DNA from: Candidatus Amesbacteria bacterium GW2011_GWA1_47_20
GTDB taxonomy: Bacteria; Patescibacteriota; Microgenomatia; CAZETR01; Amesbacteraceae
Reading direction: 5' to 3'
NCBI GenBank assembly: GCA_001002405.1
Contig: LCOA01000012.1
Coordinates: 1-48,378 of the forward strand
Length of the DNA: 48,378 nt
Below are positions 1 to 48,378 of the stretch, piece by piece. The translations under genes and the position numbers were made by a program. The notes beneath the pieces are model-generated. The model was not told the DNA's origin. It made no database searches and worked only from the letters and a program-made list of their open reading frames with translations. Position 1 is the first letter of the stretch. Every line of letters begins with the position of its first letter.

Positions 1-492
1 ACAGTGCATGCTTACACCGACGATCAAGTAGTCCAGGACGGGTCACACAAAGATCTAAGAAGAGCCAGAGCGGCGGCAGCCAACATTGTGCCCACTTCTA
101 CCGGAGCGGCCATTGCCACGACGGAAGTAATACCGGAATTAAAGGGACTGTTTGATGGCATCTCTTTACGCGTTCCAGTGTTGACAGGATCAATTTCGGA
201 TTTTGTGTTTGTAACAGCTAAACCAGTAACGCGGGAAGAAGTAAATCAGGCGTTTGTGGAGGCGAGCCAAACGCCGAAATATTCAGGGATCTTGGGGGTC
301 TCGGGGATGTCAGGGGTGTCGGAGCATTTGGTGAGCTCGGATATTATCGGAAGTAGCTATAGCGCCATTATTGATCCGGAGTTTACCCAGGTAATTGATG
401 GAGATTTGGTAAAAATGCTGGCCTGGTATGACAACGAATGGGGATATGCTAACCGGTTGGTAGAACAGACGATTATATTTGGAAAGAGTTGA
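1..492 (+). CDS. gap: glyceraldehyde-3-phosphate dehydrogenase, C-terminal part (5' end outside window)
   Basis: ORF 4..492 is open to the window edge. AWYDNEWGYANRLVE is the conserved GAPDH C-terminus. Confidence 0.9.
   Translation, partial: TVHAYTDDQVVQDGSHKDLRRARAAAANIVPTSTGAAIATTEVIPELKGLFDGISLRVPVLTGSISDFVFVTAKPVTREEVNQAFVEASQTPKYSGILGVSGMSGVSEHLVSSDIIGSSYSAIIDPEFTQVIDGDLVKMLAWYDNEWGYANRLVEQTIIFGKS
286..321. repeat. in-frame 9-nt tandem repeat (GGGRTNTYR x4) inside gap
   Basis: GGGATCTTG GGGGTCTCG GGGATGTCA GGGGTGTCG encodes GIL GVS GMS GVS. Confidence 0.7.
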
Positions 493-24325: not shown

Positions 24326-24380
24326 ACTACAGGTTATCTTTCGTTTAGGGATTCTACAAGATATGATGGAAAGAAGCAAT

Positions 24381-30380: not shown

Positions 30381-32267
30381 ATGAAGAAGGAGCCTGATAA
30401 GACAACTAAGACAAATGGGACAAATAGGACGAATGGAAAGAGGCCAGTGCGGGGGGTAATGATTCAGATGCAGTTTGATTTACAAAGACTGGCGTGGTGG
30501 GCGGTGGTGGGATTGATGATTTTTTCCTTGGCCGGATTGTGGATGTCCGGATCCAAAGTACAAAAAGAGGTGCAACTGTCACAAGCCTTGGAAGACATGA
30601 GAGCCGGGAAAATAGAGAAAGTGGAGGTATATGCCGACCGGTTGGCGCTGTTTTACACAGACAAAGAAGACGAACCCATGTTTTCTAGAAAAGAAGGGAA
30701 CGTCAGCTTTACGGAGATTTTGGATCGGGCGCAAATTAAACCGGACACAGTGAAATACGAAATTAAGGATCAGACGTTTGGACAAGTAATGACGGCGGTG
30801 TTGCCGTCGGTGATTGGGACGGGATTTGTGCTCTTAGTTCTGCTGTACATGATGCGTCAGGCGAGAGGTCAGCAAGACAGCATATTTTCTTTTGGCCAGA
30901 GCCGGGCCAGATTGTTTGACAAAGGCAAACAGTCGGTGAAATTTTCGGATGTGGCCGGAGTGGATGAGGCCAAAAAAGAGCTGGAAGAAGTAGTGGACTT
31001 TTTGAAAAACCCGGGGAAGTATAAAGCCCTGGGGGCCAGAACTCCCAAAGGGGCTTTACTGATTGGTCCATCGGGCGTGGGAAAAACACTTTTGGCCCGG
31101 GCGATTGCGGGGGAGGCAGGGGTGCCGTTTTACAGTATGGCCGGATCTGAATTTATGGAAATGCTGGTGGGGGTGGGGAGTGCCCGGGTGAGGGATTTGT
31201 TTGCCACAGCCAAGAAAAACGCTCCATCCATAATTTTCATCGATGAGGTGGATGCCATTGGCCGGCAGAGAGGACACGGGTTGATGGGGGGACATGATGA
31301 GAGAGAGCAAACGTTAAATCAGATACTGGTGGAGATGGACGGGTTTACGGCAAATGAAAACGTGGTAGTGCTGGCAGCCACGAATCGCCCGGAACTATTG
31401 GACCCGGCATTGGTGCGGCCGGGACGGTTTGACCGGAGAGTAATGGTGGATATGCCGGACATTGAAGGGCGGAAAGCGATTTTGGCTATTTATGCAAAGA
31501 ATAAGCCATTTGTAAAGTCGGTGAAGTGGGAAGCGGTGGCTAAGCGGACGGTGGGGTTCTCTGGAGCGGATTTGGAAAATATGCTGAATGAAGCGGCGAT
31601 TGGGGCGGCCAGAGAAAGCCTAAAAGAGATTACGATGGAGAACATCGAAGAGGCAGCCACAAAAGTAAAACTGGGGCCGCAGAAAAAACGCTTGCAGAGT
31701 GAGGATGATCGGAAAATGACGGCGTATCATGAGGCGGGTCACGCGGTGGTGAATTGGGCGCAGAAAGGATTGGATCCCGTGCATAGAATTTCCATTGTAT
31801 CCCGGGGGATGAGCCTGGGTCACACTCTAGTTCCACCCGCAGCTGACCGGGTACATGAAACTAAGTCCCGATTGCTGTCTCAAATTGCCATGATGCTGGG
31901 CGGGCGGGCGGCGGAAGAGCTGGTTTTCCATGAGTTTACGACGGGAGCCAGCAATGATATCGATAAGGCCTCGAGTGTAGCTCGGGATATGGTAATGGAA
32001 TATGGCATGAGTAATTTGGGGCCGATTAATTATGGTTCGGAGCCGGATGTGATTGATTGGGGTCGGGGATATATGGAGCCGACGCAAATTTCGCCTGACG
32101 TACAGGCTAAAATTGACGCAGAGGTGAAAAAAATTATTGACGAGGGCTACAAGAAAGCCCAGATAATTCTGAAAAAGCACAGAAAGAAAATGGACAAAGT
32201 GGTAGAGAGGCTGATGAAAGTAGAGACCATGGATGGCGACGAATTCGCTAAAATGATGGCGAATTGA
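30381..32267 (+). CDS. ftsH: ATP-dependent zinc metalloprotease FtsH
   Basis: GPSGVGKTLLARA, IIFIDEVDA, the SRH region and HEAGHAV. Confidence 0.95.
   Translation: MKKEPDKTTKTNGTNRTNGKRPVRGVMIQMQFDLQRLAWWAVVGLMIFSLAGLWMSGSKVQKEVQLSQALEDMRAGKIEKVEVYADRLALFYTDKEDEPMFSRKEGNVSFTEILDRAQIKPDTVKYEIKDQTFGQVMTAVLPSVIGTGFVLLVLLYMMRQARGQQDSIFSFGQSRARLFDKGKQSVKFSDVAGVDEAKKELEEVVDFLKNPGKYKALGARTPKGALLIGPSGVGKTLLARAIAGEAGVPFYSMAGSEFMEMLVGVGSARVRDLFATAKKNAPSIIFIDEVDAIGRQRGHGLMGGHDEREQTLNQILVEMDGFTANENVVVLAATNRPELLDPALVRPGRFDRRVMVDMPDIEGRKAILAIYAKNKPFVKSVKWEAVAKRTVGFSGADLENMLNEAAIGAARESLKEITMENIEEAATKVKLGPQKKRLQSEDDRKMTAYHEAGHAVVNWAQKGLDPVHRISIVSRGMSLGHTLVPPAADRVHETKSRLLSQIAMMLGGRAAEELVFHEFTTGASNDIDKASSVARDMVMEYGMSNLGPINYGSEPDVIDWGRGYMEPTQISPDVQAKIDAEVKKIIDEGYKKAQIILKKHRKKMDKVVERLMKVETMDGDEFAKMMAN
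30402..30437. repeat. 9-nt array (ACAAATAGG-like x4) in the ftsH 5' coding region
   Basis: Encodes TTKTNGTNRTNG. Confidence 0.75.
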
Positions 32268-32298
32268 TTAGCACGTGATTTTGAGACATGATTAGCAC

Positions 32299-34605: not shown

Positions 34606-35381
34606 AAACAGTAAAATTGCAGTTGAGGAAGGTGTTGATTGGCCAGAAGCTTTTGGAGAGCAAATTCCCTCAATTGGCGGGGAAGAAAGTGGTGGGGATT
34701 GAACGGAAAGGGAAAGTGCTGCTGATTAATTTTGGGCCGGGGCTGGATTTGGGGTTTCATTTCAAGATGACTGGCCAGCTAATTTACGAGGCTCAGGGAA
34801 AGAGAATTGTGGGAGGACATCCCACGGAGGATTTTGTGAATAAGATGCCAAGTAAGCATACCAGAGCAGTGTTCCACCTCTCAGGTGGAACACTGTATTT
34901 TAATGATCAAAGAATGTTTGGGTGGATAATGCTGAACCCTAAGTTTGTGGACAAACTGGGACCGGAGCCATTCGAGTTGTCAGTTGATCAGTTTATCAGT
35001 TTAATCAGTAAACGGAAAAAACCAATAAAACTGGTGTTGATGGATCAAGAGATTATTTCCGGAGTAGGGAACATCTACGCAAACGACGCCTGTTGGGAGG
35101 CGAAAGTGAACCCGCGGCGGCTGGCAAACACTCTGACGGCTAAGCAATACCACGACCTGTACATCGGGGTGGTCAGGGTGCTTAGGGAGGGGATTAAGTA
35201 TGGCGGAGCGACGGCGGTGGACGCCAAATACATAGATCTGCACGGACTGGGTGGGCATTATCAGGAGCATTTCAGGGTATATGATCGGGAAGGAGAGATG
35301 TGTCACCGCGGAGATGGAATAATTCATCGATTTGAGTTAGGGGGCAGGGGAACGTATTATTGTCCCAAATGTCAGGTCTAA
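34584..35381 (+). CDS. mutM: formamidopyrimidine-DNA glycosylase
   Basis: MPELPEIE N-terminus, GNIYANDA, and the C-terminal CxxC...CxxC zinc finger. Confidence 0.9.
   Translation: MPELPEIETVKLQLRKVLIGQKLLESKFPQLAGKKVVGIERKGKVLLINFGPGLDLGFHFKMTGQLIYEAQGKRIVGGHPTEDFVNKMPSKHTRAVFHLSGGTLYFNDQRMFGWIMLNPKFVDKLGPEPFELSVDQFISLISKRKKPIKLVLMDQEIISGVGNIYANDACWEAKVNPRRLANTLTAKQYHDLYIGVVRVLREGIKYGGATAVDAKYIDLHGLGGHYQEHFRVYDREGEMCHRGDGIIHRFELGGRGTYYCPKCQV
34869..34893. repeat. GTGTTCCACCT-CTC-AGGTGGAACAC palindrome inside the fpg coding sequence (copy e)
   Basis: 11-bp arms. Encodes VFHLSGGTL. Confidence 0.85.
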
Positions 35382-36367
35382 CAAAAATCCATTTACAGAA
35401 CTTTAGAAGTTATGAGAAGAGGAGTTTCTCGTTTGGGGAGAAAACGGTAATTGTGGGGGAGAATGGGAGCGGGAAGAGTAATTTGATGGAAGCCGTGTAT
35501 ATGTTGGCGACGGGAAAAAGTTTTAGGGCTGACCGCGAGGATGAAATGCTTAAGTATGGAGAAGGCTTTTTTCGGGTAATAGGACAAATACGACAGATGG
35601 GACAAATAGGACAAATGGAAATAACGATGGCTGATGCTAGAAAGAGATTTTTGATAAACGGAGTGCCGAGGAGACAGATTGATTTTGTGGGAAAAATGCG
35701 GGCGGTGCTGTTTTGCCCGCAGGATATGGAATTGGTAACGGGAAGCCCCGGTGGGCGAAGGAGGTATTTAGACTTCGTAATTTCCCAAATGGACAGGGAA
35801 TATAGGAGGTGTCTGATTTCTTACGAGAAAGGCTTGCGACAGAGAAACAAATTACTAGAAATGATTAGAGAAGGACTGGCGCAAAGAAGCCAATTGTTTT
35901 TTTGGGATAAGCTGCTGATTAAAAACGGGGAATATATTACCCTGAAGAGAGGAGAGTATTTAGAGGGGTTGGCCGAATATGACAAAAGTGTAATTAGTGA
36001 GGCGAGGTTAAAACAATATGAAGTGGAAGAGGTGGCGGCGGCGGCAACACTAGTAGGACCACACAGGGACGACTTTGTCGTCAATATAGACGGGCGGGAT
36101 GTGAGTAAATATGGGAGCAGGGGAGAGCAGAGAATGGCGGTTTTAGGACTAAAAGAAAAAGAGATAGAGTATTTGTTCTTCGACTCCGCTCAGGATTCGC
36201 AACAACCATTGTTGTTGCTCGATGATATCCTTTCGGAGTTGGATCACAAACACAGGGATGAAGTACAAAAAATGGTGAAGGATTACCCTGGGCAAGTGAT
36301 TATGACGACTGTTGACGATTTGCTGCCTCCTGGGGTTGGGGAGCTGGACGTGATTCGATTGGTGTAA
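35369..36367 (+). CDS. recF: DNA replication and repair protein RecF
   Basis: LQNFRSY and GENGSGKSNLMEA Walker A, plus the C-terminal LLLLDDILSELD. Confidence 0.85.
   Translation: MSGLTKIHLQNFRSYEKRSFSFGEKTVIVGENGSGKSNLMEAVYMLATGKSFRADREDEMLKYGEGFFRVIGQIRQMGQIGQMEITMADARKRFLINGVPRRQIDFVGKMRAVLFCPQDMELVTGSPGGRRRYLDFVISQMDREYRRCLISYEKGLRQRNKLLEMIREGLAQRSQLFFWDKLLIKNGEYITLKRGEYLEGLAEYDKSVISEARLKQYEVEEVAAAATLVGPHRDDFVVNIDGRDVSKYGSRGEQRMAVLGLKEKEIEYLFFDSAQDSQQPLLLLDDILSELDHKHRDEVQKMVKDYPGQVIMTTVDDLLPPGVGELDVIRLV
35577..35625. repeat. 9-nt array (AAATAGGAC-like x5) inside recF
   Basis: Encodes IGQIRQMGQIGQME. Confidence 0.8.
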
Positions 36368-36561: not shown

Positions 36562-37615
36562 ATGTACGTCCCCAAATATACTATTACGACCTCGGTTTTG
36601 AAGAATATTGGCCTGGTGGAGGCGGCCAAGGAGGTCATAGAAAACGCCCCTTTGGTGCCAGCTTGGGAAGCTAAGTTTAGGGGAGAAGCCAGGCTAAAGG
36701 CGGCGCATTATGGAACGGCGCTGGAAGGCAACGACCTGACGTTTAACGAGGCCAAAGCGGTGATGGAAGGACGGGAGAGTGAGGTGGTGGCTCGGGAGCG
36801 GGATGTGCAGGAAGTAATTAACTACCGAAGCGTCTTGGACTTTATAGAGGGACTTAAAGACGTTAATAACTACACTAAGGATTTGTTACTACAAATGCAT
36901 GGTTTGGTGGTAGAAAAACTGGTAGCTCGGGAGCAAACAGGACAATACCGGTCCAGCCAGGTGGTCTTGAAGAATTCAGTAACGGGGGAGATTGGATTTA
37001 GACCTCCCCAGGCGGCAGAAGTGCCTTTTCTGGTGGATGAACTACTGCGCTGGTTGAATGGGGAATATGGGAAAAAAGAACACCCAGTGTTGCGGGCCGG
37101 GGTGACACATTATGTGCTGGCGGCGGTGCACCCGTTTATAGAAGGGAATGGCCGAACGGCTCGGGCGCTGGCTACTTTAGTGCTATTTAATGAGGGGTAT
37201 GATATCAAACGCTTTTTTGCCCTAGAGGAATATTTTGACAAACACGCGGAGGAGTATTTTGGCAGTCTGATGACTGTGTCCAACCAATCGCCGATGCTGG
37301 AAGACCGAGATCTGACGCCGTGGCTGGAAGTATTTACCCAGGCGCTGGCGATGGAGCTAACACGAATTAAGGAACAAGTAAGAGAACTGTCGGTGGATAT
37401 CAAAATAAAAGAACAGAGAGGAATGCAGGTCAGCCTATCTGAAAGACAAATGAAACTAATGGAGTATTTGCACAGCAATGGAGAAATGAGCCAAGGGGGT
37501 GCTGGCGATGGTTTCGGAAGACACGATTTTGCGAGACCTAAAGGACCTGATGGACAAACAGGTTATTGACAAGCGGGGGAGCACGAAATCTGCTAGATAC
37601 GTGCTGAAAAAATAA
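36562..37615 (+). CDS. Fic family protein with an apparent 1-nt frameshift in a G5 run near the 3' end
   Basis: HPFIEGNGRTARA Fic motif. After 37495-37499 the conserved tail VLAMVSEDTILRDLKDLMDKQVIDKRGSTKSARYVLKK* continues in another frame. It ends at 37615 in a TAATG overlap with the next gene. Confidence 0.75.
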
Positions 37616-37803
37616 TGGCTGCTGATGCGCAAATGTTTTACGTAATGCTGGCACTGCCCACCCTTTTTGGTCTGACCATGGTGGGGGAGGGGGTATACAA
37701 AATGAGTCACTATGAGCCAGGGTGGGTAAGCATCATTCTGGGCACGCTTTTCTTAGTGATAGTGGCATTTGGATATTTTTTGCTAAAAGGATATATGACA
37801 TAG
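37615..37803 (+). CDS. small two-TM membrane protein
   Basis: 62 aa. The start overlaps the restored Fic stop codon. Confidence 0.5.
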   Translation: MAADAQMFYVMLALPTLFGLTMVGEGVYKMSHYEPGWVSIILGTLFLVIVAFGYFLLKGYMT

Positions 37804-37840
37804 GACAAATAGGTCGGATAGGACGGATAGGTCGTATAAT
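37801..37840. repeat. 9-nt array (TAGGACAAA-like x4), intergenic
   Basis: TAGGACAAA TAGGTCGGA TAGGACGGA TAGGTCGTA. Confidence 0.85.
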
Positions 37841-37935: not shown

Positions 37936-38823
37936 ATGAGTGTTGAGGGTGAGCAATTTTACAGGGATCTGCGTGGTAGCCGGTCGGACGTTTTGGTTTC
38001 GATGGGAACGGGGGTTTGGGATGTTCTTATACCTCATGGTTCAAAAGTGGATGGTGTAGTATTTGATTTTGGAGAAAGTTATGCTAAGGCAATGATGCAA
38101 TCAAAAATTGGGAGGCCGTCTCTAGACGCGGTTAAGTGGTTATGGTCAGATTTTGGGAGGGATGATATTTGGGGGGTCGGGGGAGTGTTCTATTATTATG
38201 ATCATCCAGCAGGGTCGGTTGCTGCAATAAAAAAGGTGCAGCGAGTAATTGTTCCTATCGGTTTTTCTTGCACTGGGGGTTTCAATGGGTGGGTTGAGGA
38301 TCACAGATTGGAGCTTGAGAAGAGATGGAACTTGGGGACAGTGGCGTTTGGTGTGAACGGAATGATGTATTCAGAAAATGACATACCGACTGGGGTTCCG
38401 CATGATAATGGGTCACACGGCACGATGATTTTTTGGGATACCGAAGTGACCAATAACTTAGTGTTGAGAAATCCGAGCGACAAATTTTTGGTGTTTAGTG
38501 ACATCGATACAAAAGTTGATGATGCGTTATTGGCAAAAGCAGGATTGGAAATCGGATCACCATTTTTGGTGGCCGAAACAAGGAGGGGTTATCATTTGAT
38601 TTTTCCAGTTTTATTTGTTGGTGGCTATCAGAGGGATCGTTTGGCTAGAGTCGAAGGGAGAATAATGATTGGATTGACGCGTGCGGGTATAGGTATGGAT
38701 GTTTCTAACGCTGGTCATATTTTGGAGACTAATGAATCTGTAATTAGAGTGACATCAGGATTACGTAGAGACGATACGCCGTCAATTGTGGGTGTAGTGT
38801 GGGGTGATCAAATGCTAAGATAA
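37936..38823 (+). CDS. hypothetical protein with primase-polymerase (AEP)-like motifs in its C-terminal half
   Basis: LVFSDIDTK (DxD), ETRRGYHLIF (sGxH-like), GMDVSN and VIRVTSGLR, in AEP order and spacing. It ends 4 nt before the ligase gene. Confidence 0.4.
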   Translation: MSVEGEQFYRDLRGSRSDVLVSMGTGVWDVLIPHGSKVDGVVFDFGESYAKAMMQSKIGRPSLDAVKWLWSDFGRDDIWGVGGVFYYYDHPAGSVAAIKKVQRVIVPIGFSCTGGFNGWVEDHRLELEKRWNLGTVAFGVNGMMYSENDIPTGVPHDNGSHGTMIFWDTEVTNNLVLRNPSDKFLVFSDIDTKVDDALLAKAGLEIGSPFLVAETRRGYHLIFPVLFVGGYQRDRLARVEGRIMIGLTRAGIGMDVSNAGHILETNESVIRVTSGLRRDDTPSIVGVVWGDQMLR

Positions 38824-38827
38824 AAGC

Positions 38828-40507
38828 ATGAAGTTTGGTGAGCTGGCGAAGTATTTGCAGAAGCTGGAGGGGACGGCGAGCAGGAATGAGATGACGGTGA
38901 TTTTGGCTAAACTCTTTGGAGAAGCGAGTCCCGAAGATGCCAGATTGATTGCATATCTGTCTGCTGGAAGATTGGGACCTGCGTATAATTCACCTGATAC
39001 GGGAGTGGCGGACAAGATGATGGTTAAGGCTTTGGGACCAGAGGCGGAAAAACTATTTAAACAAAAGGGAGATATGGGGTTGGTGGCCCAAGAACTAAAC
39101 ACAGGGAAAGGAAGTTTGTCCGTGGAGGAGGTGCACGAGAGACTGCTCTCTATAGCTAGAGATAGCGGAACAGGAAGCCAAGAGAGAAAACAAGAACTGA
39201 TAAGGAAATTATTGAGTGAGTTAGATGCGGTGAGTGCTAAGTATGTGGTGAAGATAATTTTGGGGAAATTGCGGACGGGATTTTCGGATATGACAGTGCT
39301 GGACAGTTTGAGCTGGATGCTGGCGGGAGATAAGAGTAAGAGAAAGGAGATAGAGAAAATATATAACGTGAGAGCGGATTTGGGAGAGGTGGCGAAGACG
39401 ATTAAGACATATAGGACGAATAGGACACATAGGACATATGGACCGGAAGTGGGGACGCCGATACTTATGGCTCGAGCAGAAAGGGCCAAGACACCACAAG
39501 ATATTTGGGAACGGAATGGCAAATGCGCTGTGGAATATAAATTAGATGGGTTACGCATTCAAGCCCACCTGAAAGGTGGGATTGTGACACTCTTTTCCAG
39601 AGGGATGGAGGATGTGACCCATATGTACCCCGATATTTGCGAAGGATTAACAAAACAACTCAAGAATAATTGTATTGTGGAGGGGGAGATGATTGCGGTG
39701 GGAAGTAACGGAAGATTTTTGCCTTTTCAGGAAACGGTACAACGCAAAAGAAAATACGATATTGCGGCCATGGCGATGAAAGTGCCGCTGAAAATTTACT
39801 TGTTCGACGTGCTGCTTCTCAATAGGACAAATATGACTAATAGGACAAATAAGGAGAGGCGGGAAGCGTTGGAAGAACTGGTGAAACCTGGGGAGGTGGT
39901 GAAACTCATGCCGAGGATTGAGATAGAGACAGAGATAGAGATAGAGAAGTATTTTAAAGAGGCGGTGGGGGATGGGACGGAGGGGATAATTGCTAAGAAA
40001 CTGGATGGGCCGTATCAAGCAGGAGCCAGAGATTTTAATTGGATAAAATACAAAAAGAGTTACACTAAATCGGCTTTGGCTGATACTATTGACGCGGTGG
40101 TGATGGGGTATGACGTGGGCCAAGGAAAACGGGCGAGTTTTGGAATAGGAGATTTTTTGATTGGGGTATACGAATCTGACCTAGATAGTTTTGTGACAGT
40201 TGCGAAAGTTGGCACGGGGTTAACGGACCAAGAATGGAGAGAGATGAAACTCAAATGTCAAATGTCAAATGTCAAATCAAAACCGGAAAACTACAATGTC
40301 AAAAAGGAAATGAACTGTGACCACTGGGTGGGGCCGAAGATTGTGGTGGAGATATTGGCTGATGAGATTACCAAGTCTCCGATGCACACTAGTGGTTATG
40401 CATTGAGGTTTCCCAGGCTGGTGACGTTTCGAGAAAAGAAGCCCCAAGACGCTACTACTGTTCAAGAGCTTTTAAACATGTTTAAATTACAACAGGAGAG
40501 TAGGTGA
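38828..40507 (+). CDS. lig: ATP-dependent DNA ligase (Lig1/archaeal type with an N-terminal DNA-binding domain)
   Basis: EYKLDGLRIQAH (KxDG adenylation site), EGEMIA, EGIIAK and the OB-domain blocks. Confidence 0.9.
   Translation: MKFGELAKYLQKLEGTASRNEMTVILAKLFGEASPEDARLIAYLSAGRLGPAYNSPDTGVADKMMVKALGPEAEKLFKQKGDMGLVAQELNTGKGSLSVEEVHERLLSIARDSGTGSQERKQELIRKLLSELDAVSAKYVVKIILGKLRTGFSDMTVLDSLSWMLAGDKSKRKEIEKIYNVRADLGEVAKTIKTYRTNRTHRTYGPEVGTPILMARAERAKTPQDIWERNGKCAVEYKLDGLRIQAHLKGGIVTLFSRGMEDVTHMYPDICEGLTKQLKNNCIVEGEMIAVGSNGRFLPFQETVQRKRKYDIAAMAMKVPLKIYLFDVLLLNRTNMTNRTNKERREALEELVKPGEVVKLMPRIEIETEIEIEKYFKEAVGDGTEGIIAKKLDGPYQAGARDFNWIKYKKSYTKSALADTIDAVVMGYDVGQGKRASFGIGDFLIGVYESDLDSFVTVAKVGTGLTDQEWREMKLKCQMSNVKSKPENYNVKKEMNCDHWVGPKIVVEILADEITKSPMHTSGYALRFPRLVTFREKKPQDATTVQELLNMFKLQQESR
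39407..39445. repeat. 9-nt array (ATAGGACNN x4) inside the ligase gene
   Basis: Encodes YRTNRTHRTYGP. Confidence 0.85.
39821..39853. repeat. 9-nt array (ATAGGACAA-like x4) inside the ligase gene
   Basis: Encodes NRTNMTNRTNK. Confidence 0.8.
40250..40277. repeat. heptamer array (CTCAAAT x1, then GTCAAAT x3) inside the ligase gene
   Basis: Encodes KLKCQMSNVK. Confidence 0.85.
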
Positions 40508-41366: not shown

Positions 41367-41867
41367 ATGAAAATTATTGTGGGACTTGGGAATCCGGGGG
41401 TGGAATATGCGGGAACGAGACATAATATGGGAGTGGCGCTTGTGGAGCGTCTAGCGTCTAGCTCAGATTATGGGTGGAGAAAGCATTACGATGCGTTGGT
41501 TTACAAGACCCCGGATGTGGTTTTGGTCAAGACAAGAGACGTTTTTATGAATGAATCGGGGAGGCTTTTGCAGGGACTACCAGAAGGGGAGCTGTATATT
41601 GCTCACGACGATCTAGATTTAAAGTTGGGGGAATATAAGATTCAGTTTGGCAGGGGACCAAAAGACCACAACGGAGTAGAATCGGTAGAAAGAGCATTGG
41701 GGACAAAGGATTTTTGGCGCGTGCGCATAGGAATAGACAATCGTACTACACCCATTGACGGGGAGAGTTATGTGCTGCAAAAATTTACGGCTGAAGAAAA
41801 AGGTATCTTGGACAACACTCTTGATGCAATCGTTAAAGCAATTATTCCAGACCAAAAACCCGGTTGA
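41367..41867 (+). CDS. pth: peptidyl-tRNA hydrolase
   Basis: IVGLGNPGVEYAGTRHNMG and HDDLDL. Confidence 0.95.
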   Translation: MKIIVGLGNPGVEYAGTRHNMGVALVERLASSSDYGWRKHYDALVYKTPDVVLVKTRDVFMNESGRLLQGLPEGELYIAHDDLDLKLGEYKIQFGRGPKDHNGVESVERALGTKDFWRVRIGIDNRTTPIDGESYVLQKFTAEEKGILDNTLDAIVKAIIPDQKPG

Positions 41868-42075
41868 TAAGAATAAGTTTGTCAGCCGGGAGTTTCAAGA
41901 TTATGGATACCGGCTGGCGGCGGAATTAGGAGACTTGGCTCACAAGTCGTTATATATTAAGTTAGCTAAAACCATAGATAGGTCAATTTTGGAGCAATGC
42001 AAGAGGTTTGTGATTGATAGCAATGCAGACAACCGAGGGGCCTTGTTTATGTGGAAACTGAAACAGCTAAAATAG
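41824..42075 (+). CDS. hypothetical protein
   Basis: ORF overlapping the pth 3' end. The start is uncertain. Confidence 0.4.
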   Translation: MQSLKQLFQTKNPVDKNKFVSREFQDYGYRLAAELGDLAHKSLYIKLAKTIDRSILEQCKRFVIDSNADNRGALFMWKLKQLK

Positions 42076-42142
42076 TACAATAGGACATATGGGTCAGATA
42101 GGGCTAATAGGACAAATAGTACTAATGATAGGGATAGCGGGG
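42071..42142. repeat. 9-nt array (ATAGGACAA-like x8) spanning an intergenic region and a gene start
   Basis: AATAGTACA ATAGGACAT ATGGGTCAG ATAGGGCTA ATAGGACAA ATAGTACTA ATGATAGGG ATAGCGGGG. Confidence 0.85.
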
Positions 42143-42589
42143 TGGACGAGAAGCTGGTGGTTGGCGGTAGGATGGATAATCGGGTACGCGCTGGCGGAGG
42201 CGGACCATTTGTTTTATGTGGCGGTGTGTAATCCCCAAGAATTAACTTGCCAGCGGGTGCGTCAGGAGTTAGGAGCTAGGAGTTGGAAGTCAGCTTGGGA
42301 ACTGCTACGGAGAACGGCGGGAGAGAGAACGAGACTGCCGATACATAATGTGCTGACTGGGTTAATTGTGGCCGTGTTAGGATGGTGGGTAGTGAATAGT
42401 GTGGGAAGCATGTTGGCGGCAGGAGTCGTGGTAGGGTTGGGGGTGCGGTTGTTTACAGAGTTTTTGGCCGGGAACAAAAAAAGTTGGTTTTGGGTGTTTG
42501 CCAGGGAGTTTAGTGTCGGGGAGGTCTGGGTGGTCGGGGGAGTCTGGGGGGTGTTACAGCTGATTTCCGTGGTAGGATTGGTCAGATAG
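42089..42589 (+). CDS. hypothetical membrane protein
   Basis: 166 aa with several TM segments. The start codon and first ~15 codons lie inside the 9-nt array. Confidence 0.5.
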   Translation: MGQIGLIGQIVLMIGIAGWTRSWWLAVGWIIGYALAEADHLFYVAVCNPQELTCQRVRQELGARSWKSAWELLRRTAGERTRLPIHNVLTGLIVAVLGWWVVNSVGSMLAAGVVVGLGVRLFTEFLAGNKKSWFWVFAREFSVGEVWVVGGVWGVLQLISVVGLVR

Positions 42590-42616
42590 GTCATATGGGA
42601 CAAATAGGCCAAATAT
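42572..42616. repeat. 9-nt array (x5) spanning a stop codon, a spacer and the next start codon
   Basis: GTAGGATTG GTCAGATAG GTCATATGG GACAAATAG GCCAAATAT. Confidence 0.8.
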
Positions 42617-43347
42617 TAATTTGGACGACGGTGGGAAGTGTGGTGAGTTTGATTGGGGGGATACTGCTGGCGGTTCGTAAAAAAGCATTTACCCATGAGC
42701 AATCATTACTATTAATATCGTTTGCGGCGGGAGTATTGCTATCCACAGCTTTTTTTGACCTATTACCTGAAGCGATAGGACAAATAGGTCAGATAAGTCT
42801 AATAGGGCAAATAGGGGGGATTATATTTCTTTTTTTGCTGGAAAAATTTTTGTGGTATCACCATCATGACGAAGAACACGAGGGACATAAGCGGACGCCG
42901 ATACTGATTACAGTGGGGGATACGGTGCACAATTTCATTGACGGGGTGGTGATAGCGGGAACGTTTATGGTGGCGCCAGCGACGGGAATTGCGACGGCGC
43001 TGGCGGTGGCGGCGCATGAGATACCGCATGAAATGGCAGATTTTGGAGTGCTGTTGACCAAAGGCTGGGCTAGAAAAAAAGTGATTTTGATTAATCTGGC
43101 GTCGGCGGGGGCATCCCTTCTGGGGGCGGTACTTATGTATTATTTGGGGGGACGGATAGAGGGGGTATTGCCTGTACTTCTGTCTTTTTCTGGAGGGATG
43201 TTTATTTATTTGGCTTGCTCTGATTTGATTCCCGAACTGCATCACGGGCATGCGGAGAAGAAAAGTGAAACATTGGGGCAGATGGCAGTGTTTGGGGTGG
43301 GGATAATAATTGTGTTACTATTAAAAGAATGGCTGCAGTACATCTAA
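42595..43347 (+). CDS. ZIP-family metal transporter (ZupT-like)
   Basis: HNFIDGVVIAG and AHEIPHEMADFGVLL. Confidence 0.85.
   Translation: MGQIGQILIWTTVGSVVSLIGGILLAVRKKAFTHEQSLLLISFAAGVLLSTAFFDLLPEAIGQIGQISLIGQIGGIIFLFLLEKFLWYHHHDEEHEGHKRTPILITVGDTVHNFIDGVVIAGTFMVAPATGIATALAVAAHEIPHEMADFGVLLTKGWARKKVILINLASAGASLLGAVLMYYLGGRIEGVLPVLLSFSGGMFIYLACSDLIPELHHGHAEKKSETLGQMAVFGVGIIIVLLLKEWLQYI
42774..42827. repeat. 9-nt array (x5-6) inside the ZIP transporter loop region
   Basis: Encodes AIGQIGQISLIGQIGG. Confidence 0.8.
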
Positions 43348-43646
43348 CTAAGGCTGATTTTGACGACAAAATTAAGGTGGGGATTTCCCTAGTGGATTTT
43401 TGGGCGGAATGGTGCGGGCCGTGCAAGATGGCGGCGCCGGTGATTGACGGATTGGCTGATGAGTATGCCGGAAAGGTAGTGGTGGCTAAACTGGATGTGG
43501 ACGCAGAACCGGAAATTGCGCAAAAGTTTGGAGTGATGAGCATTCCCACGGTGATTTTATTTAAAGACGGAGCGGAGCTGGCTCGACAAGTTGGATTCGC
43601 AGGTAAGCAAGGATATCTTGACTTACTTAAGAAGGTCATACAATAG
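43329..43646 (+). CDS. trxA: thioredoxin
   Basis: WAEWCGPCK active site. 105 aa. Confidence 0.95.
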   Translation: MAAVHLTKADFDDKIKVGISLVDFWAEWCGPCKMAAPVIDGLADEYAGKVVVAKLDVDAEPEIAQKFGVMSIPTVILFKDGAELARQVGFAGKQGYLDLLKKVIQ

Positions 43647-43688
43647 GCATACGATTGGCATACAATGGTCATACGATGGTAAACAGAT
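43634..43688. repeat. 11-nt tandem array (GGTCATACAAT-like x4-5), left flank of the low-GC island
   Basis: GGTCATACAAT AGGCATACGAT TGGCATACAAT GGTCATACGAT GGTAAACAGAT. Confidence 0.8.
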
Positions 43689-44044
43689 ACGAAGATTTGG
43701 AAATTTATCAAGTCTCAGTCGAAGTTGCGATTGAGGTTTACAGACTGACTAAAAAATTTCCTAAAGAAGAAACTTATGGAATAGTAGATCAATTGAAAAG
43801 AGCAGTTACTTCAATTGGGGCGAATATAGCTGAGGGTTTTGGGAGGTTTTATTTTAAAGACAAATTGGTTTTCTTTTATCACTCTCGAGGTTCATTATTT
43901 GAGGTTAAACATTTCTTGGAAATATCATTCAGGATGGGGTATATTACAAATGAAGAGAAAAATAGTTTGTTCGTGAAGTTAAATAACTTGTCGGTGAAAT
44001 TAAACAACTTTATTAGTTCAATAGGTAAACAGAACGGCAGTTAA
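43676..44044 (+). CDS. four-helix-bundle protein (23S rRNA intervening-sequence protein family, TIGR02436-like)
   Basis: YEDLEIYQ ... FPKEETYGIVDQLKRAVTSIGANIAEG. Confidence 0.85.
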   Translation: MVNRYEDLEIYQVSVEVAIEVYRLTKKFPKEETYGIVDQLKRAVTSIGANIAEGFGRFYFKDKLVFFYHSRGSLFEVKHFLEISFRMGYITNEEKNSLFVKLNNLSVKLNNFISSIGKQNGS

Positions 44045-44048
44045 AACG

Positions 44049-44894
44049 ATGTTTTTGAAAACAGATCTAGAAACTCAAAGCGTTTCTGATGTATTGGCTT
44101 TTTTTGGAATTGAGATTCCTCGAGAAATAACACGAATTGGCGATGGTATAGCTAACCATAGCTACATTGCCAAAACCAACCAAGGGGAATATGTTGTCAA
44201 ATTTTTAGTAGCCCAAACCACAAAAAACATTGAGAACGACATTATAATTCAAAAACAGCTAAGGCGAGTAGGTATAAACACACCGCTGTACATTCAAAAT
44301 AAAGATGGCAGGTATATATTTAACAATAACGATACGAGTGCCGTTGTTTCTGAAAGGATTGATGGTGTAATTCCACGTAAAGTAATGGGGAAACTCGCTA
44401 AAGATATAGGACAAAAACTGGCGATATTTCATAAATCAGTACTTAAGCTGTCCTACCCGAACAACAAAGGACTTATGAATCCTAAGGTATCTGGTATTGT
44501 TTCGGAACTTTTTGCTCAGTCATTACCTAAAGGTATAATTCACGGCGATTTACATAACGGAAATATATTGGTAGATCCTGCCGAAAAAGACAGTGTAGTA
44601 GCGATTCTAGACTTTGAAGAAGCTGGCGAAAACTTATACATAGTTGATCTTGCGGTCACGTTAATGTCCGTGTGCACTTCAAGCGATGAGAATATTGTTG
44701 ACACGGATCTAATGCAAGCAGTTACCTCCGGTTACGAATCCGTTAGGCAATTAAGCAAAGAGGAAAAATATTGGTTGCCGGAAGCCATTAAATACTCAGC
44801 CAAGGCTTGGATAAAATGGTTTAACGAAAACGGCTATGATAAATACGCCGAGAAACATCAAATGCGTTTAAATAGCTTAAACTGGAAGGACTAA
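44049..44894 (+). CDS. phosphotransferase-family kinase (APH / homoserine kinase type II-like)
   Basis: IIHGDLHNGNILVD and ILDFEEAG. Confidence 0.75.
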   Translation: MFLKTDLETQSVSDVLAFFGIEIPREITRIGDGIANHSYIAKTNQGEYVVKFLVAQTTKNIENDIIIQKQLRRVGINTPLYIQNKDGRYIFNNNDTSAVVSERIDGVIPRKVMGKLAKDIGQKLAIFHKSVLKLSYPNNKGLMNPKVSGIVSELFAQSLPKGIIHGDLHNGNILVDPAEKDSVVAILDFEEAGENLYIVDLAVTLMSVCTSSDENIVDTDLMQAVTSGYESVRQLSKEEKYWLPEAIKYSAKAWIKWFNENGYDKYAEKHQMRLNSLNWKD

Positions 44895-44920: not shown

Positions 44921-44970
44921 GATAAACAATGAATGACTATTGTATGACTACTGTATGACAATTTATGACG
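44921..44970. repeat. 10-11-nt tandem array in inverted orientation (ATTGTATGAC-like), right flank of the island
   Basis: ACTATTGTATG ACTACTGTATG ACAATTTATG ACG. The reverse complement reads GTCATACAAT / GTCATACAGT. Confidence 0.7.
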
Positions 44971-45875
44971 TTATCATAATAGGCAGCGGGCCGGCTGGAC
45001 TTACCGCGGGAATTTATACCAGTAGAGCTAATTTAAAAACTTTGATGGTGGCCGGTTCGAAATGGGGCGGGCAGTTGATGCTGACGGAGGGTGTGGAAAA
45101 CTTTCCTGGGTTCCCCGAGGGAATACAAGGGCCGGAGTTGATGACAAGTATGCGTAAACAGGCAGAAAAGCACGGAGTGGAAATAGTGGATGAAGACATG
45201 GTGAGGATAGAAATGGGCGATAGGCCATATAGGACGAATACGACAAATAGGTCATATAGAAGTAGAGCGATAATAATAGCCACGGGGGCGGCGACGCAGT
45301 GGCTGAATGTGCCGGGGGAACAAGAACTTATTGGGCGGGGCGTGTCGTCGTGCGCTCCATGCGATGCCCCATTTTTTAAAGGGAAGAGAGTGATAGTGGT
45401 GGGGGGAGGGGATGCGGCGATGGAAGAGGCGCTGGTGCTGACTAAATTTGCAGATGAGGTAACTATTGTGCACAGACGGAGTGAATTTAGGGCCAGCCAA
45501 ATCATGCAAGAAAGGGTCAAGAATAATTCGAAGATAAAAATAAAATGGAATACGGAAATTTCGGAGATTGTAGGAAAAGAAAAAATAGAGAAAGTGAAAT
45601 TTAAGGACGGAACGGAGATGGAAGCCGACGGAGTGTTTGTGGCCATTGGGCATAAACCGGCTAGCAAGATATTTGAAGGAAAAATTGACTTGGACGAGAA
45701 AGACTATATTAAACGCCAGGGTCAGAAATACCTCACCATGTCTAATGTCGAAGGAGTGTTTGTAGCCGGAGATGTGCACGATTATAGATATAGACAGGCG
45801 ATTACGGCTGCGGGATATGGATGCGAAGCGGCCCTTGACGTAGAGAGGTGGTTGTCGGAGAATGGTACAGCATGA
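44955..45875 (+). CDS. trxB: thioredoxin-disulfide reductase
   Basis: DVIIIGSGPAGLTAG, CAPCDA redox centre and VVGGGDAAMEEA. Confidence 0.95.
   Translation: MTIYDVIIIGSGPAGLTAGIYTSRANLKTLMVAGSKWGGQLMLTEGVENFPGFPEGIQGPELMTSMRKQAEKHGVEIVDEDMVRIEMGDRPYRTNTTNRSYRSRAIIIATGAATQWLNVPGEQELIGRGVSSCAPCDAPFFKGKRVIVVGGGDAAMEEALVLTKFADEVTIVHRRSEFRASQIMQERVKNNSKIKIKWNTEISEIVGKEKIEKVKFKDGTEMEADGVFVAIGHKPASKIFEGKIDLDEKDYIKRQGQKYLTMSNVEGVFVAGDVHDYRYRQAITAAGYGCEAALDVERWLSENGTA
45205..45262. repeat. 9-nt array (x6) inside trxB
   Basis: Encodes DRPYRTNTTNRSYRS. Confidence 0.75.
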
Positions 45876-46633
45876 AAGAGAAAATGTTTCCGGTTTTGGT
45901 GGGAGTGTTGATTGTGATGGCTTTTGTGATGGGGGCAATGTGGAGCAAGTTGCAAACACTGGGAGAACAAGCACCACAGGCAAATCAGGCAGACCAGGTA
46001 AAGCCAGGTAAGTATAAGAATTTTGACGAAGCTATAAAGGATTTAGCTAAGCAGGTAAAGATCGATGGAAGTAAATTAGTGTCTTGCATAAACTCGGGTG
46101 AGAAGAAGGGGATTGTGGATGCCGATACAAACGAAGGGGGCACGTTGGGCGTGACTGGAACACCAGCGTTTTTTATAAACGGAAAGTTTTTAGGAGGAGC
46201 GTTCCCACTAGAATCATTTAAGGAGATTATTGATAAAGAGTTGGCAGGAAAAGGATCAACAAACTATAAGGATTATTCTAAGAGTTTGCAGGAGGCTTAT
46301 GAGGATCCGCGGGGGAAGGCGTTTGATCCTGTGCCCAAAAAGGTGAATGTGGGAAATACTTCTACCAGGGGAACAGCGGGGGCTAAAGTGATAATAGTGG
46401 AATACTCTGATTTCCAGTGTCCTTATTGCGAAAGGGCATACCCAACAGTGCAACAGATATTGAAGGAGTATGAGGGTAATGTACTTGTGGCATATAAACA
46501 TCTCCCATTAGTCTCGATTCATCAGTATGCGCAAAAAGCGGCGGAGGCGGCAGAGTGTGCAAAAGATCAAGGGAAGTTTTGGGAATTTCACGATAAATTG
46601 TTTGAGACACAATCGGATTGGGCGAATTTGTGA
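45872..46633 (+). CDS. DsbA-like thioredoxin-fold protein with domain halves in swapped order
   Basis: TM segment, then the C-terminal-type half (GVTGTPAFFINGKFLGGAFP), then the N-terminal-type half (VEYSDFQCPYC...KFWEFHDKLFE), then the stop. Confidence 0.7.
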   Translation: MKEKMFPVLVGVLIVMAFVMGAMWSKLQTLGEQAPQANQADQVKPGKYKNFDEAIKDLAKQVKIDGSKLVSCINSGEKKGIVDADTNEGGTLGVTGTPAFFINGKFLGGAFPLESFKEIIDKELAGKGSTNYKDYSKSLQEAYEDPRGKAFDPVPKKVNVGNTSTRGTAGAKVIIVEYSDFQCPYCERAYPTVQQILKEYEGNVLVAYKHLPLVSIHQYAQKAAEAAECAKDQGKFWEFHDKLFETQSDWANL

Positions 46634-47196
46634 AACTAAACGCTAAACAACTGCGAGTGACCAAGCCTTCAGAGAAAGAACTGGCAAGAATAGAGAGAAA
46701 GCCCATATATATAGTATTGGATAACGTATTAGATACATATAACATTGGCTCGATTTTTAGATTGGCGGATGCGGTTGCTGCTCGTGAAATAATTTTGTGT
46801 GGAGGATCTGAAACTCCGCCTAGTAGCAGAATTCACAAGGCGGCAGTGGGAACGGAAGAATGGGTACCTTGGCAGTATGCAGCTGATGCTGCAACTGCAA
46901 TTTCTAAACTCAAAACCCTAAATCCTAAAATTAAAATAATTGCTGTGGAACAAGATGAAAGATCCATGCCTCTTTCCCACCTCACCCCAACCCCTCTCCA
47001 AAATTTTGGAGAGGGGAACGGAAGGGATGAGGTTGCTGTTGCGGTGGTAGTTGGTCATGAAACAGAAGGAGTCTCTCGACAAGTGCTCGAGATGGCGGAT
47101 GTGATAGTAGAGATTCCCATGTGGGGAGTGAACAAATCTTTGAATGTGGTGGTGTCCACCGGCATCGTGCTTTACATGGTGGTGGAATTGATATAG
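46618..47196 (+). CDS. SpoU/TrmH-family RNA 2'-O-methyltransferase
   Basis: NIGSIFRLADA, VVGHETEGVS and IPMWGVNKSLNV. Confidence 0.85.
   Translation: MGEFVKLNAKQLRVTKPSEKELARIERKPIYIVLDNVLDTYNIGSIFRLADAVAAREIILCGGSETPPSSRIHKAAVGTEEWVPWQYAADAATAISKLKTLNPKIKIIAVEQDERSMPLSHLTPTPLQNFGEGNGRDEVAVAVVVGHETEGVSRQVLEMADVIVEIPMWGVNKSLNVVVSTGIVLYMVVELI
46901..46936. repeat. degenerate heptamer array (NNCTAAA-like) in trmH-like coding sequence
   Basis: TTTCTAA ACTCAAA ACCCTAA ATCCTAA AATTAAA. Confidence 0.5.
46982..47030. repeat. palindromic in-frame insert (TCACCCC..CCCCTCTCC-AAAATTTT-GGAGAGGGG), copy 2
   Basis: Perfect 26-nt palindrome at 46991-47016. Encodes LTPTPLQNFGEGN. Confidence 0.8.
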
Positions 47197-47271
47197 AATA
47201 CGGAGGCTGTATGACGCAGACTTGCTCATTGACATATTTATTGTCTTTTAAGAAGTGGTAGGAATTTTTTT

Positions 47272-47314
<43 letters not shown>

Positions 47315-47569
47315 TAGGCATGCAAGTAAAACGGGTCCCGCAAGGGACAAGTTGCAGACGGGTGAGTAATACATAGGAATCTACCTTTTAGTGGGGAATA
47401 GCTGGCCGAAAGGCCAATTAATACCGCATAAGATCGCAAGATGAAAGGGCGTAACTGCCCGCTGAAAGATGAGCCTATGTCCTATCAGCTAGTTGGTGGG
47501 GTAAAAGCCTACCAAGGCGATGACGGGTAGCTGGACTGAGAGGTCGGTCAGCCACAATGTTACTGAGAT

Positions 47570-48273: not shown

Positions 48274-48378
48274 ACGGAACATACGACTACGGTCGGCAGC
48301 AACTAGGAATATTGCGCAATGGACGAAAGTCTGACGCAGCGACGCCGCGTGGAGGATGACGGCCTTCGGGTTGTAAAC

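Follow-up and report, generated by a model that had tools for sequence, protein, structure and literature searches.

Nonamer arrays in the window

The 48,378-nt contig LCOA01000012.1 of Candidatus Amesbacteria bacterium GW2011_GWA1_47_20, referred to below as the window, carries a family of short tandem arrays of the nonamer ATAGGACAA that lie in frame within housekeeping genes and across the junctions between genes (Table 1). A scan for at least three consecutive, phase-locked 9-nt units, each identical to ATAGGACAA in at least six of nine positions, returned nine arrays on the forward strand, starting at positions 30397, 35579, 37800, 39402, 39822, 42080, 42577, 42775 and 45220. The reverse strand held none, and neither did the first 30 kb, so that the family is confined to the range from 30.4 to 45.3 kb. 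Each array consists of three to six units in strict 9-nt phase, and the same nine were recovered with Tandem Repeats Finder (TRF). In 200 resimulations of the window under a first-order Markov model based on dinucleotides, the mean was 0.165 arrays and the maximum two. Single units with at most one mismatch occur 30 times against an expectation of 11 +/- 3.3; 27 of them are on the forward strand, 25-26 of these beyond 30 kb.

As evidenced by Pfam assignments, the hosts are FtsH, RecF, an ATP-dependent DNA ligase (two sites), a ZIP transporter (two sites) and TrxB, to which an unnamed membrane protein is to be added. Alignment of 45 units yields the motif A1 T2 R3 G4 G5 N6 C7 N8 N9, a 7-nt core ATRGGNC followed by two free bases. 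Four arrays are read as ATA-GGA-CAA (IGQ type) and four as AGG-ACA-AAT (RTN type), the TAG of the repeat is the stop codon of three upstream open reading frames (ORFs), and ATG variants of the unit are the start codons of two genes. No Rfam family overlaps the arrays, and a look-up of the exact RecF protein gave no match.

An earlier, sequence-only reading of this DNA had described a multi-locus, sequence-specific repeat of a single orientation, found in essential genes and across gene boundaries between 30 and 46 kb, with a TAG frame that is never read through inside genes and with two arrays supplying the start codons of consecutive genes, and all of this is confirmed. It had counted four to eight units per array where we count three to six. 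The array that it placed in an intergenic region (37801-37840) does contain a stop codon, but this codon ends a 61-codon ORF; the array therefore begins at an ORF stop and forms the edge of a variable 1030-bp segment. The different nonamer noted in gap is indeed unrelated to the ATAGGAC family.

The arrays are real. Logan contigs from three independent groundwater metagenome runs (X1, X2, X5) cover all of them with 0 differences and 0 indels, and because contigs from independent runs match at every array, the assembly artefact that the sequence-only reading had considered is excluded. The polymorphism in repeat number for which it had proposed a check was likewise not seen: no variation in unit number was found in four metagenome assemblies, with partial coverage in the fourth (X6) and at the level of contigs, where rare variants would escape. 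Phase-variable contingency loci vary in unit number within a population, while the arrays described here show no such variation at contig level and are kept between species. Note that changes by 9-nt units cannot shift the reading frame.

Table 1. Arrays, hairpin and cassette components of the window, with positions on the forward strand
Feature	Position	Strand	Remarks
Unrelated nonamer array (GGGGTGTCN)x~3	286..321	+	C-terminal region of GAPDH (glyceraldehyde-3-phosphate dehydrogenase); outside the ATAGGAC family
Nonamer array in FtsH, codons 6-20, 'KTTKTNGTNRTNGK'	30397..30441	+	AGG-ACA-AAT frame; orthologous array in L106, weak in L107, none in L105
Hairpin GTTCCACC-N5-GGTGGAAC in fpg, 'VFHLSGGT'	34871..34891	+	In frame; only in the window and L106
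Nonamer array in RecF, 'IGQIRQMGQIGQ'	35579..35623	+	ATA-GGA-CAA frame; beta-strands of RecF 5Z67, single-residue gaps only
Nonamer array at an ORF end	37800..37838	+	First TAG (37801-37803) closes small ORF 37617-37803 (61 codons); left edge of strain-variable segment 37797-38826
Nonamer array, ligase site 1, 'KTYRTNRTHRTYGP'	39402..39446	+	Linker between N-terminal and adenylation domains
Nonamer array, ligase site 2, 'NRTNMTNRTNK'	39822..39857	+	Length as in orthologues and PDB 2HIV
Perfect heptamer array (TCAAATG)x3.9 in ligase, 'KCQMSNVKS'	40251..40277	+	Residues 474-484
Junction array, 'MGQIGLIGQIVLMIGI'	42071..42142	+	ORF 41755-42075 stops at its TAG (42073-42075); the unnamed membrane protein takes from it its ATG (42089) and ~17 initial codons
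Junction array, 'MGQIGQIL'	42572..42621	+	The membrane protein stops at its TAG (42587-42589); the ZIP transporter takes from it its ATG (42595) and initial codons; conserved in L106
Nonamer array in ZIP loop, 'AIGQIGQISLIGQIGG'	42775..42827	+	+3 codons relative to L105/L107; L106 has 5 codons more
11-mer array (GGTCATACAAT)x4.3	43634..43680	+	Left end of cassette; contains TAG stop of trx and ATG of the four-helix-bundle gene
Four-helix-bundle gene, short form	43676..44044	+	PF05635 23S_rRNA_IVP, 4.5e-34; TIGR02436
Inverted 11-mer array (ATGACTATTGT x3.5 as read on +)	44933..44969	-	Right end of cassette; overlaps trxB start
Nonamer array in TrxB, hairpin of FAD domain, 'DRPYRTNTTNRSYRS'	45211..45264	+	Arrays also at this site in L106 and L133

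Age and length neutrality of the arrays

The window is syntenic with Candidatus Amesbacteria GW2011_GWC2_45_19 (L021/L106; L numbers denote loci of other genomes) at 75-80% nucleotide identity, and an identical gene block is contained in NCBI assembly GCA_001003245.1. In a neighbour-joining tree of 2,035 aligned residues the window and L106, separated by an amino-acid distance of 16%, form one sister pair and L105 and L107 another, with L108, L110/L111 and others outside. L106 shares six array positions with the window, all six of its arrays being in sense orientation; two positions are shared by L107, and none by L105. For ligase site 2, arrays are seen beyond L106 and L107 among the outgroups, in L110 and L111; for TrxB, L133 has one too. 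The arrays are ancient and common to sister species. In the comparison of orthologues that the sequence-only reading had proposed, six sites carry arrays in the sister species as well, and in L105 the ATAGGAC arrays are absent from segments of equal or nearly equal length.

In protein and codon alignments, ligase site 2 is of exactly equal length across about 20 species, and the other sites differ from their orthologues by 0-5 codons, with arrays that themselves span 9-18 codons. The TrxB array overlies a beta-hairpin in the TrxR structure 5UTH, flanked on either side by one single-residue gap, and by structure alignment the ligase arrays correspond to the linker and a strand region in 2HIV. 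Because orthologues and solved structures have the segment at matching length, the repeat has replaced existing coding sequence instead of adding loops. This does not support the suggestion of the sequence-only reading that the arrays are insertions and a source of loop-length variation: mapped onto the structures of RecF, ligase and TrxB, they overlie existing elements with at most single-residue gaps.

Other repeats at the same and further sites behave in a like manner. At the RecF site, L107 has (GARATGGGG)n, L105 has (GAAGTYGGG)n, L108 has (GAGATTGGG)n, and L110 and L120 have heptamer-like AATTTTC runs; altogether other arrays of 9- or 7-nt units are found there in L105, L107, L108, L110, L111 and L120. 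At ligase site 1, with ATAGGAC units in the window, the array of the sister species L106 is (CAGATTAAG)x4.3, and those of L109 and L110 are made of heptamers. Ligase residues 474-484 are encoded by a perfect or near-perfect heptamer array in every repeat-rich lineage: the array of the window has as its counterparts (TCAAGAT)4 in L105, (CTCAAAG)4 in L107 and (TCAAATC)4-5 in L108, at equal protein length in all aligned proteins except that of L116, which is one residue longer. A 7-nt unit cannot grow in a gene by single-unit slippage, and renewal of these arrays must therefore be length-neutral. The hairpin in fpg belongs to a 21-nt family GTTCCACC-N5-GGTGGAAC with five copies in the window (5572, 13679, 20006, 34871 and 37857), one arm of which is sometimes duplicated; in other relatives its site in fpg holds unrelated sequence of about equal length, which is evidence that dispersed repeats here overwrite coding DNA in place. 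We take the hairpin arm TGTTCCAC to be equal to a Bacillus-type parS half-site. The window thus holds further repeat families (7-mers, 11-mers and the hairpin) with similar behavior, and short tandem repeats are frequent in part of this group: TRF lists 1.0-1.65 rows per kb for some Amesbacteria lineages and 0.3-0.46 for others.

Conservation at the level of DNA

Compared codon by codon, the arrays of the window and L106 agree at fractions of.78,.84 and.70 for positions 1, 2 and 3, and the remainder of the same genes at.84,.92 and.56. Set against the array-free L105 and L107, the array segments are the fastest-evolving parts of their genes, with identities that range from.46 to.66 for the first two codon positions and from.36 to.47 for the third. 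Whether a unit is read as IGQ or as RTN, A1, T2 and C7 are conserved among the 45 units. Codon usage follows the motif: Ile is encoded by ATA in 18 of 20 cases (background 29%, p = 2.5e-8), Arg by AGG in 9 of 11 (21%, p = 3.5e-5) and Asn by AAT in all 10 (61%, p = 0.007). Because third positions are better conserved inside the arrays and the codons track the motif, it is the nucleotide sequence, not the peptide, that is maintained.

Some candidate functions were rejected. A 'speed bump' of rare codons does not fit a genome with a tRNA-Ile(UAU), in which 29% of Ile codons are ATA and 21% of Arg codons are AGG. Shine-Dalgarno mimicry or ribosome pausing by the AGGA core was dismissed, as leaders are A-rich and show no Shine-Dalgarno consensus in this genome, and a CsrA sponge formed by CAGGAUG-like units would leave the coding arrays and the gene association unaccounted for.

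Cassettes of four-helix-bundle genes

At two loci of Patescibacteria (L088 and L096), arrays of the same family crowd around a gene named by NCBI 'four helix bundle suffix domain-containing protein' (4HB-suffix). Seven further contexts of such genes (L567/570, L571, L572/573, L574/575, L576, L577) were chosen by protein similarity alone, at 55-67% identity. In all nine contexts, ATAGGAC-type nonamer arrays are found on both flanks of the gene together with one internal site, the longest array reaching 44 copies. An alignment of the proteins shows a conserved array-like motif RKLAYxxNRSYKTYxxYM with the core NRSYKTY, and expansions of RTN, RTD or KTN that are member-specific and occur at three sites. 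The AlphaFold2 model (pLDDT, the per-residue confidence score, of 83.7) is a helical bundle that, among solved structures, best matches 2GSC and 2RLD; these are the two structures of PF05635, and neither has a known function. The 4HB-suffix proteins are relatives (PF05635/TIGR04258) of the protein of 23S rRNA intervening sequences and occur in small cassettes in the candidate phyla radiation (CPR) and other phyla; among 8,000 candidates scored, the branch has 5,731 matches at E <= 1e-10. The family is known only under names that refer to 23S rRNA intervening sequences, S23p or Avd, and outside diversity-generating retroelements it has been assigned no function. The PF05635 domain has been called functionally uncharacterised (PMC11270868).

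The window itself contains a short member of this family. Together with an APH-like gene (44049-44894), the four-helix-bundle gene 43676-44044 constitutes a lineage-specific insertion between trx and trxB, and the two 11-mer arrays at its ends form arms that fold with -36.4 kcal/mol (z = -6.8). The same 11-mers precede all four-helix-bundle genes of 80-90% identity in four other contexts, in other species and at another site. Relatives of the cassette sit at the trx/trxB junction or between DksA-like and RIO1-like genes, and the units differ in more distant members, with 10-mers in L110 and, in a metagenome-assembled genome (MAG) of Bacteroidota, inverted heptamers (TTAGAGA).

For a systematic test, 80 metagenomic loci with PF05635 relatives of 33-92% identity, obtained in one scan, were searched for arrays of period 6-13. 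An array lies within 150 nt upstream of the short PF05635 gene at 59 of 79 loci, downstream at 56 of 79 and on both sides at 45 of 78. Arrays make up 19.1% of bases in the flanks versus 2.4% elsewhere, with near exceeding far at 67 loci and the reverse at 8 (sign test, p = 1e-12), and inverted 8-mers common to both flanks occur at 51 of 75 loci versus 9% of mismatched loci. Heptamers are the commonest of the flanking arrays (64 of 145), followed by periods of 10 (31 arrays), 6 (21), 8 and 11 (11 each) and 9 (6). Arrays of ATRGGNC were found at none of the 80 short-form loci. As the nonamer accompanies nine of nine suffix genes and 0 of 80 short loci, protein subfamily and repeat unit are paired, the nonamer belonging with the suffix-domain subfamily and not with the short family. 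No paper linking PF05635 to tandem repeats was found.

At one of the PF05635 loci (L621, metagenome contig Ga0265296_1008589), the gene lies between telomere-like hexamers, (GGGGTT)x8.7 at 1423-1474 and (CCCTAA)x8.7 at 1867-1918.

The nonamer family in other genomes

An exact scan for two consecutive copies of ATAGGACAA in 185,579 species genomes yielded 104 stretches. We rejected the reading of this count as an enrichment over a naive expectation of ~17, as reversed and scrambled control units each gave at least 120. The reversed unit is itself a relative (7/9 identical in one rotation, with an ACAGGAT core) that has an inverted-pair family of its own, and the scrambled unit GAAGATACA is the sole null. 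Among the matches listed, seeded arrays of at least four units numbered 56 of 104 for ATAGGACAA versus 21 of 120 for the scrambled unit, unseeded arrays 49 in 33 loci versus 4 in 4 loci, and loci with forward and reverse arrays within 400 nt 27 versus 0. When only GG-N-C was used as an anchor, A-T-A upstream and A at position 6 were regained in unseeded arrays outside the CPR, but not in control loci. The ATAGGAC nonamer family is special, not generic.

Intergenic arrays of this family occur in Acidobacteriota, Thermoanaerobaculia, Myxococcota, Planctomycetota and Lentisphaerota, including the cultured Oligosphaera ethanolica. Their layout is (ATAGGACNN)n, a spacer of 0 to ~270 nt and (NNGTCCTAT)n, often beginning at a stop codon. 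As in the window, other Patescibacteria carry them in frame within long ORFs or immediately upstream of a start codon, and in total orphan arrays are found in the window and at about 70 loci of other genomes. Of 81 arrays in high-GC genomes, 19 end an ORF of at least 100 codons with their first TAG; this count was rejected as a sign of proximity to stop codons, since long ORFs not backed by gene calls may be spurious. In viral contigs, three consecutive copies of ATAGGACNN gave 76 stretches versus 89 for the reversed control and hence no enrichment, and the matches are probably collagen-like genes. Collagen-like Gly-X-Y repeats form long runs in one frame, while the arrays of the window have three to six units and use two frames plus a stop frame. 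No paper containing 7- to 18-mers of the motif was found.

Via the reversed control we also met a sister family, (NNCAGGATN)x3, that forms intergenic inverted pairs in L324, L361, L372, L386, L400 and L402 (Pyrinomonadaceae and other MAGs) and whose core ACAGGAT resembles ATAGGAC.

Further features of the window

Part of the run X2 population lacks the segment 37797-38826 (1030 bp), which contains a nonamer array, a GTTCCACC hairpin and a 295-residue ORF (37936-38823); there TAGCTAA bridges the joint 37796->38827. The ORF product p295 had no homologue in 5.8 billion proteins and no match in Pfam, PHROG, NCBIfam or PDB. It was considered as a 'writer' of the repeats on account of apparent primase-polymerase-like motifs and rejected as an ORFan without any family match.

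A second small cassette with tandem-repeat ends (32261-32719) is flanked by (TGATTAGCACA)x3.3 and an inverted copy of it. It carries a GxxExxY / PDDEXK_3 gene (32299-32685; TIGR04256) of a family also known from rRNA intervening sequences and is a lineage-specific insertion that is not in L106. In the Fic gene (36562-37569), contigs of all four runs have 11 extra bases (GTATGCGTGAG) after 37489, and the 3' part of this gene probably bears, in the window, a deletion that shifts the frame.

Plant-telomere-like (CCCTAAA)n is found twice, at 22944-22963 after a tRNA-Ile with the anticodon UAU (22853-22925), and in degenerate form at 46904-46929 inside the SpoU-like ORF 46618-47196. The tRNA reads ATA directly, which constitutes 29% of Ile codons outside the arrays. 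The heptamer AATTTGA occurs at 9991 and 34495, with a related unit inverted at 40251. GC skew is constant at about +0.3 throughout the window, and nearly all genes are on the forward strand. A LAGLIDADG-type ORF (47557-48177), the customary rRNA insertion of the CPR, interrupts the 16S rRNA gene, which starts at 47266 (47266-48378 in the window). The array-free part contains small genes of toxin type, namely a PIN gene (5084-5509), a HEPN gene (13745-14230), a gene that is PIN-like by eye only (29929-30369), and in addition a VirD4/TraG-like coupling protein and XerC/D-like integrase (20495-22837 and 23450-24379).

Origin of the arrays

Taken with the pairing of unit and gene, the constant length of the affected segments and the conservation of DNA over peptide lead us to favor a reading to which we assign a probability of about 0.55: the arrays of the window would be orphan copies of the tandem-nonamer family of the 4HB-suffix cassettes, spread by copy-overwrite conversion. 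Of the possibilities raised in the sequence-only reading, a gene-converting repeat is the one that the evidence favors. In this Amesbacteria lineage the repeat would have overwritten gene junctions and those parts of housekeeping genes that tolerate it, replacing the prior sequence by short-patch gene conversion or by template switching between arrays during replication, and homogenisation within and between arrays (concerted evolution) would keep the copies alike. A dominant unit may take over existing array sites, and arrays may extend into neighboring tolerant sequence. Inside genes only copies with open frames, ATA-GGA-CAA (IGQ) or AGG-ACA-AAT (RTN), would survive, TAG-frame copies would persist only at gene ends as stops, and ATG variants would by now provide starts. 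We infer that the arrays are selfish or neutral and not useful, and that the process of copying and overwriting is lineage-specific and active. More tentatively, proteins of the PF05635 family may be partners of cognate short tandem repeats, each subfamily lying between inverted arrays of its own 6-11-nt unit and seeding or maintaining orphans of that unit elsewhere in the genome, an arrangement that could be regarded as a two-component selfish system, analogous to REPIN-RAYT (see below) but with a protein that is no transposase and with spread by overwriting.

Several observations weigh against this reading. Neither a donor-recipient pair nor an enzyme or intermediate of conversion was seen, and there is no 4HB-suffix gene in the window or in the syntenic loci of its relatives, so that motif identity is the single apparent tie between the window arrays and the cassette family. 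The arrays of the cassettes occur in both orientations, yet 9/9 in the window and 6/6 in L106 are sense, which needs either a filter at the protein level (the antisense frames read LSY, CPI and VLF) or a strand-specific process. Clustering between 30 and 46 kb is unaccounted for, and the inverted intergenic arrays of Acidobacteriota and other phyla lack a demonstrated co-occurrence with a 4HB-suffix gene. Arrays were lost in L105 and L107 without replacement, which fits neutrality but does not prove it, and the better conservation of third positions would equally fit a selected function.

Such a function is the core of an alternative that we regard as unlikely, according to which a protein reads ATRGGNC every 9 nt on DNA or mRNA and the motif is selected in a zone of ~16 kb; candidates would be a four-helix-bundle protein acting in trans or a nucleoid or segregation factor. 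The conservation of nucleotides independent of frame, with third positions above background, the single orientation and the tight clustering all agree with it, as do the seven conserved and two free bases, which are reminiscent of operator or centromere repeats and recur in other phyla, and the pairing of subfamily and unit (9/9 vs 0/80) suggests that a PF05635 protein recognises its own repeats. However, most arrays are lost in the close relatives L105 and L107, and in other lineages unrelated units, some of another period, occupy these sites, which speaks against the motif being needed at particular sites. No binder has been identified, a 4HB-suffix gene is not found in the window, and the genome has no Shine-Dalgarno consensus that the AGGA core might mimic. 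Independent microsatellites arising by slippage, alike through composition or through selection for tripeptides, would suit a lineage that is rich in short tandem repeats (1.0-1.65 vs 0.3-0.46 TRF rows per kb) and arrays that sit in variable protein segments. We nevertheless consider this account the least credible of all, as one 7-nt core is used in two reading frames and a stop frame, the codons track the motif and not the genome, nine arrays stand against 0.17 expected, coding heptamers of constant length are impossible by single-unit slippage, and no variation in unit number is seen.

It is quite improbable that (ATAGGACAA)n DNA, synthesised by a telomerase-like reverse transcriptase from a 9-nt RNA template, occasionally patches breaks or gaps and so writes one unit at many loci. 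The systems DRT10/UG17 do produce kilobase tandem 9-nt complementary DNA, (GAATCATTG)n, from a noncoding RNA template (bioRxiv 10.1101/2025.10.16.682844), but their products are without known integration. PF05635 includes Avd, an accessory protein of diversity-generating retroelements (DGRs) that works with a reverse transcriptase (PHROG 3206 match), and a lineage-specific template would fit with one unit at many sites per genome and other units in other lineages. Against this, no reverse transcriptase domain (RVT) was detected in 30 scanned ORFs of the window, many different units coexist in one genome, and unit variation is not adenine-specific, with A1 invariant and G4, G5 and C7 variable. 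The proposal that molecular drive, through preferential uptake and recombination of fragments bearing the motif in presumably competent bacteria, built up a motif resembling an uptake signal is very improbable as well. It would be in line with length-neutral, in-place appearance in weakly constrained coding segments and with the inverted pairs after genes in other phyla, to which the terminator pairs formed by DNA uptake sequences and uptake signal sequences (DUS/USS) can be likened. Known uptake sequences, however, are single, in both orientations, dispersed genome-wide and recognised by the competence machinery, whereas the motif is tandem, sense in 9/9 arrays and locally clustered within the window; an identical core in unrelated phyla and a tie to one gene family would also be unexpected for a species-specific signal.

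Relation to known repeat systems

The combination of cassettes and orphan arrays has parallels in several known systems, of which the one formed by repetitive extragenic palindromic elements and their associated tyrosine transposase (REPIN-RAYT) is the closest in architecture. Nunvar in 2010 and Bertels and Rainey in 2011 reportedly described it as a single-copy gene flanked by its repeats. Both systems have a gene flanked by its cognate repeat, with all nine 4HB-suffix genes and, for short PF05635 genes, 59 of 79 upstream and 56 of 79 downstream flanks carrying arrays, many orphans that are often inverted pairs after genes, and a repeat specific to the subfamily. The differences are that the protein here is a four-helix bundle (PF05635/TIGR04258) without a known catalytic motif instead of a Y1 HUH transposase, that the repeats are tandem units of 6-11 nt instead of single palindromes of 20-40 nt with a GTAG head, and that the orphans of the CPR are in frame inside genes and, in this lineage, appear to overwrite instead of inserting.

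Rickettsia palindromic elements (RPEs) are selfish DNA found in frame in housekeeping genes (PMC10969869). Like these, the nonamer family is dispersed in frame at tolerated positions of many unrelated essential genes, in the window FtsH, RecF, ligase (two sites), ZIP (two sites), TrxB and the membrane protein. RPEs measure ~150 bp and lengthen the protein, however, whereas the arrays of 27-54 nt replace residues. Neither the insertion typical of RPEs and in-frame MITEs (miniature transposable elements with inverted repeats), given 0-5 codons of length difference for arrays of 9-18 codons, nor their palindromic structure or terminal inverted repeats are found in the window, where the arrays are direct repeats of one orientation. 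The short tandemly repeated repetitive (STRR) sequences of cyanobacteria are heptamer families of unknown function and origin, and to our knowledge no cognate gene has been linked to them. They are similar in that one unit occurs at many loci, in that heptamers are the commonest period flanking PF05635 genes and in that heptamer families are present in the window, but here the unit is 9 nt long, the phylum is a different one, the arrays are in frame in genes and there is a candidate cognate gene.

The intervening sequences (IVS) of 23S rRNA, which encode S23p of the same PF05635 family, also place an ORF between inverted repeats able to form a long stem. ORF 43676-44044 has such inverted arms; it is not located in an rRNA gene, cassettes of this kind lying between protein-coding or tRNA genes, and its inverted repeats are made of tandem short units. 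We found no earlier connection of orphan arrays to an IVS-type ORF in the literature. DGRs, whose Avd is in the same four-helix-bundle family, overwrite their target at unchanged length by retrohoming. The window differs from them in having neither a reverse transcriptase nor a pair of template and variable repeats, and in its many targets in unrelated genes. Adenine mutagenesis of the DGR type is not seen in the 45 units: A1 is kept in 43 of 45, while G4, G5 and C7 vary in 16-24%. DRT10/UG17 is likewise bacterial and copies a short template into tandem repeats whose unit measures exactly 9 nt, but its product is an extrachromosomal, protein-primed single-stranded DNA for phage defence (bioRxiv 10.1101/2025.10.16.682844), its unit is unrelated, and no such gene was seen here. 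Dispersed repeats with a cognate gene, selfish repeats in frame and STRR sequences are thus known kinds, and we could not find a description of a gene-plus-repeat system such as the one proposed here.

Implications

In practical terms, the arrays break short-read assemblies, leaving many four-helix-bundle genes on contigs of 1-5 kb, and they may pass for CRISPR-like in repeat finders and yield apparent low-complexity peptides in annotation. In this minimal-genome bacterium, old and stably inherited repeats maintained at the level of DNA recode essential proteins at constant length, unlike RPE or MITE insertion and unlike contingency loci that vary by slippage. PF05635, a large and widespread family, gains a concrete property, namely that its genes lie between inverted arrays of short tandem repeats specific to the family member, and STRR sequences and other short tandem repeats of the dispersed type gain a candidate source. 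If true, a two-component system of gene and repeat would account both for the origin of STRR-like repeats and for their presence in frame in essential genes of the CPR.

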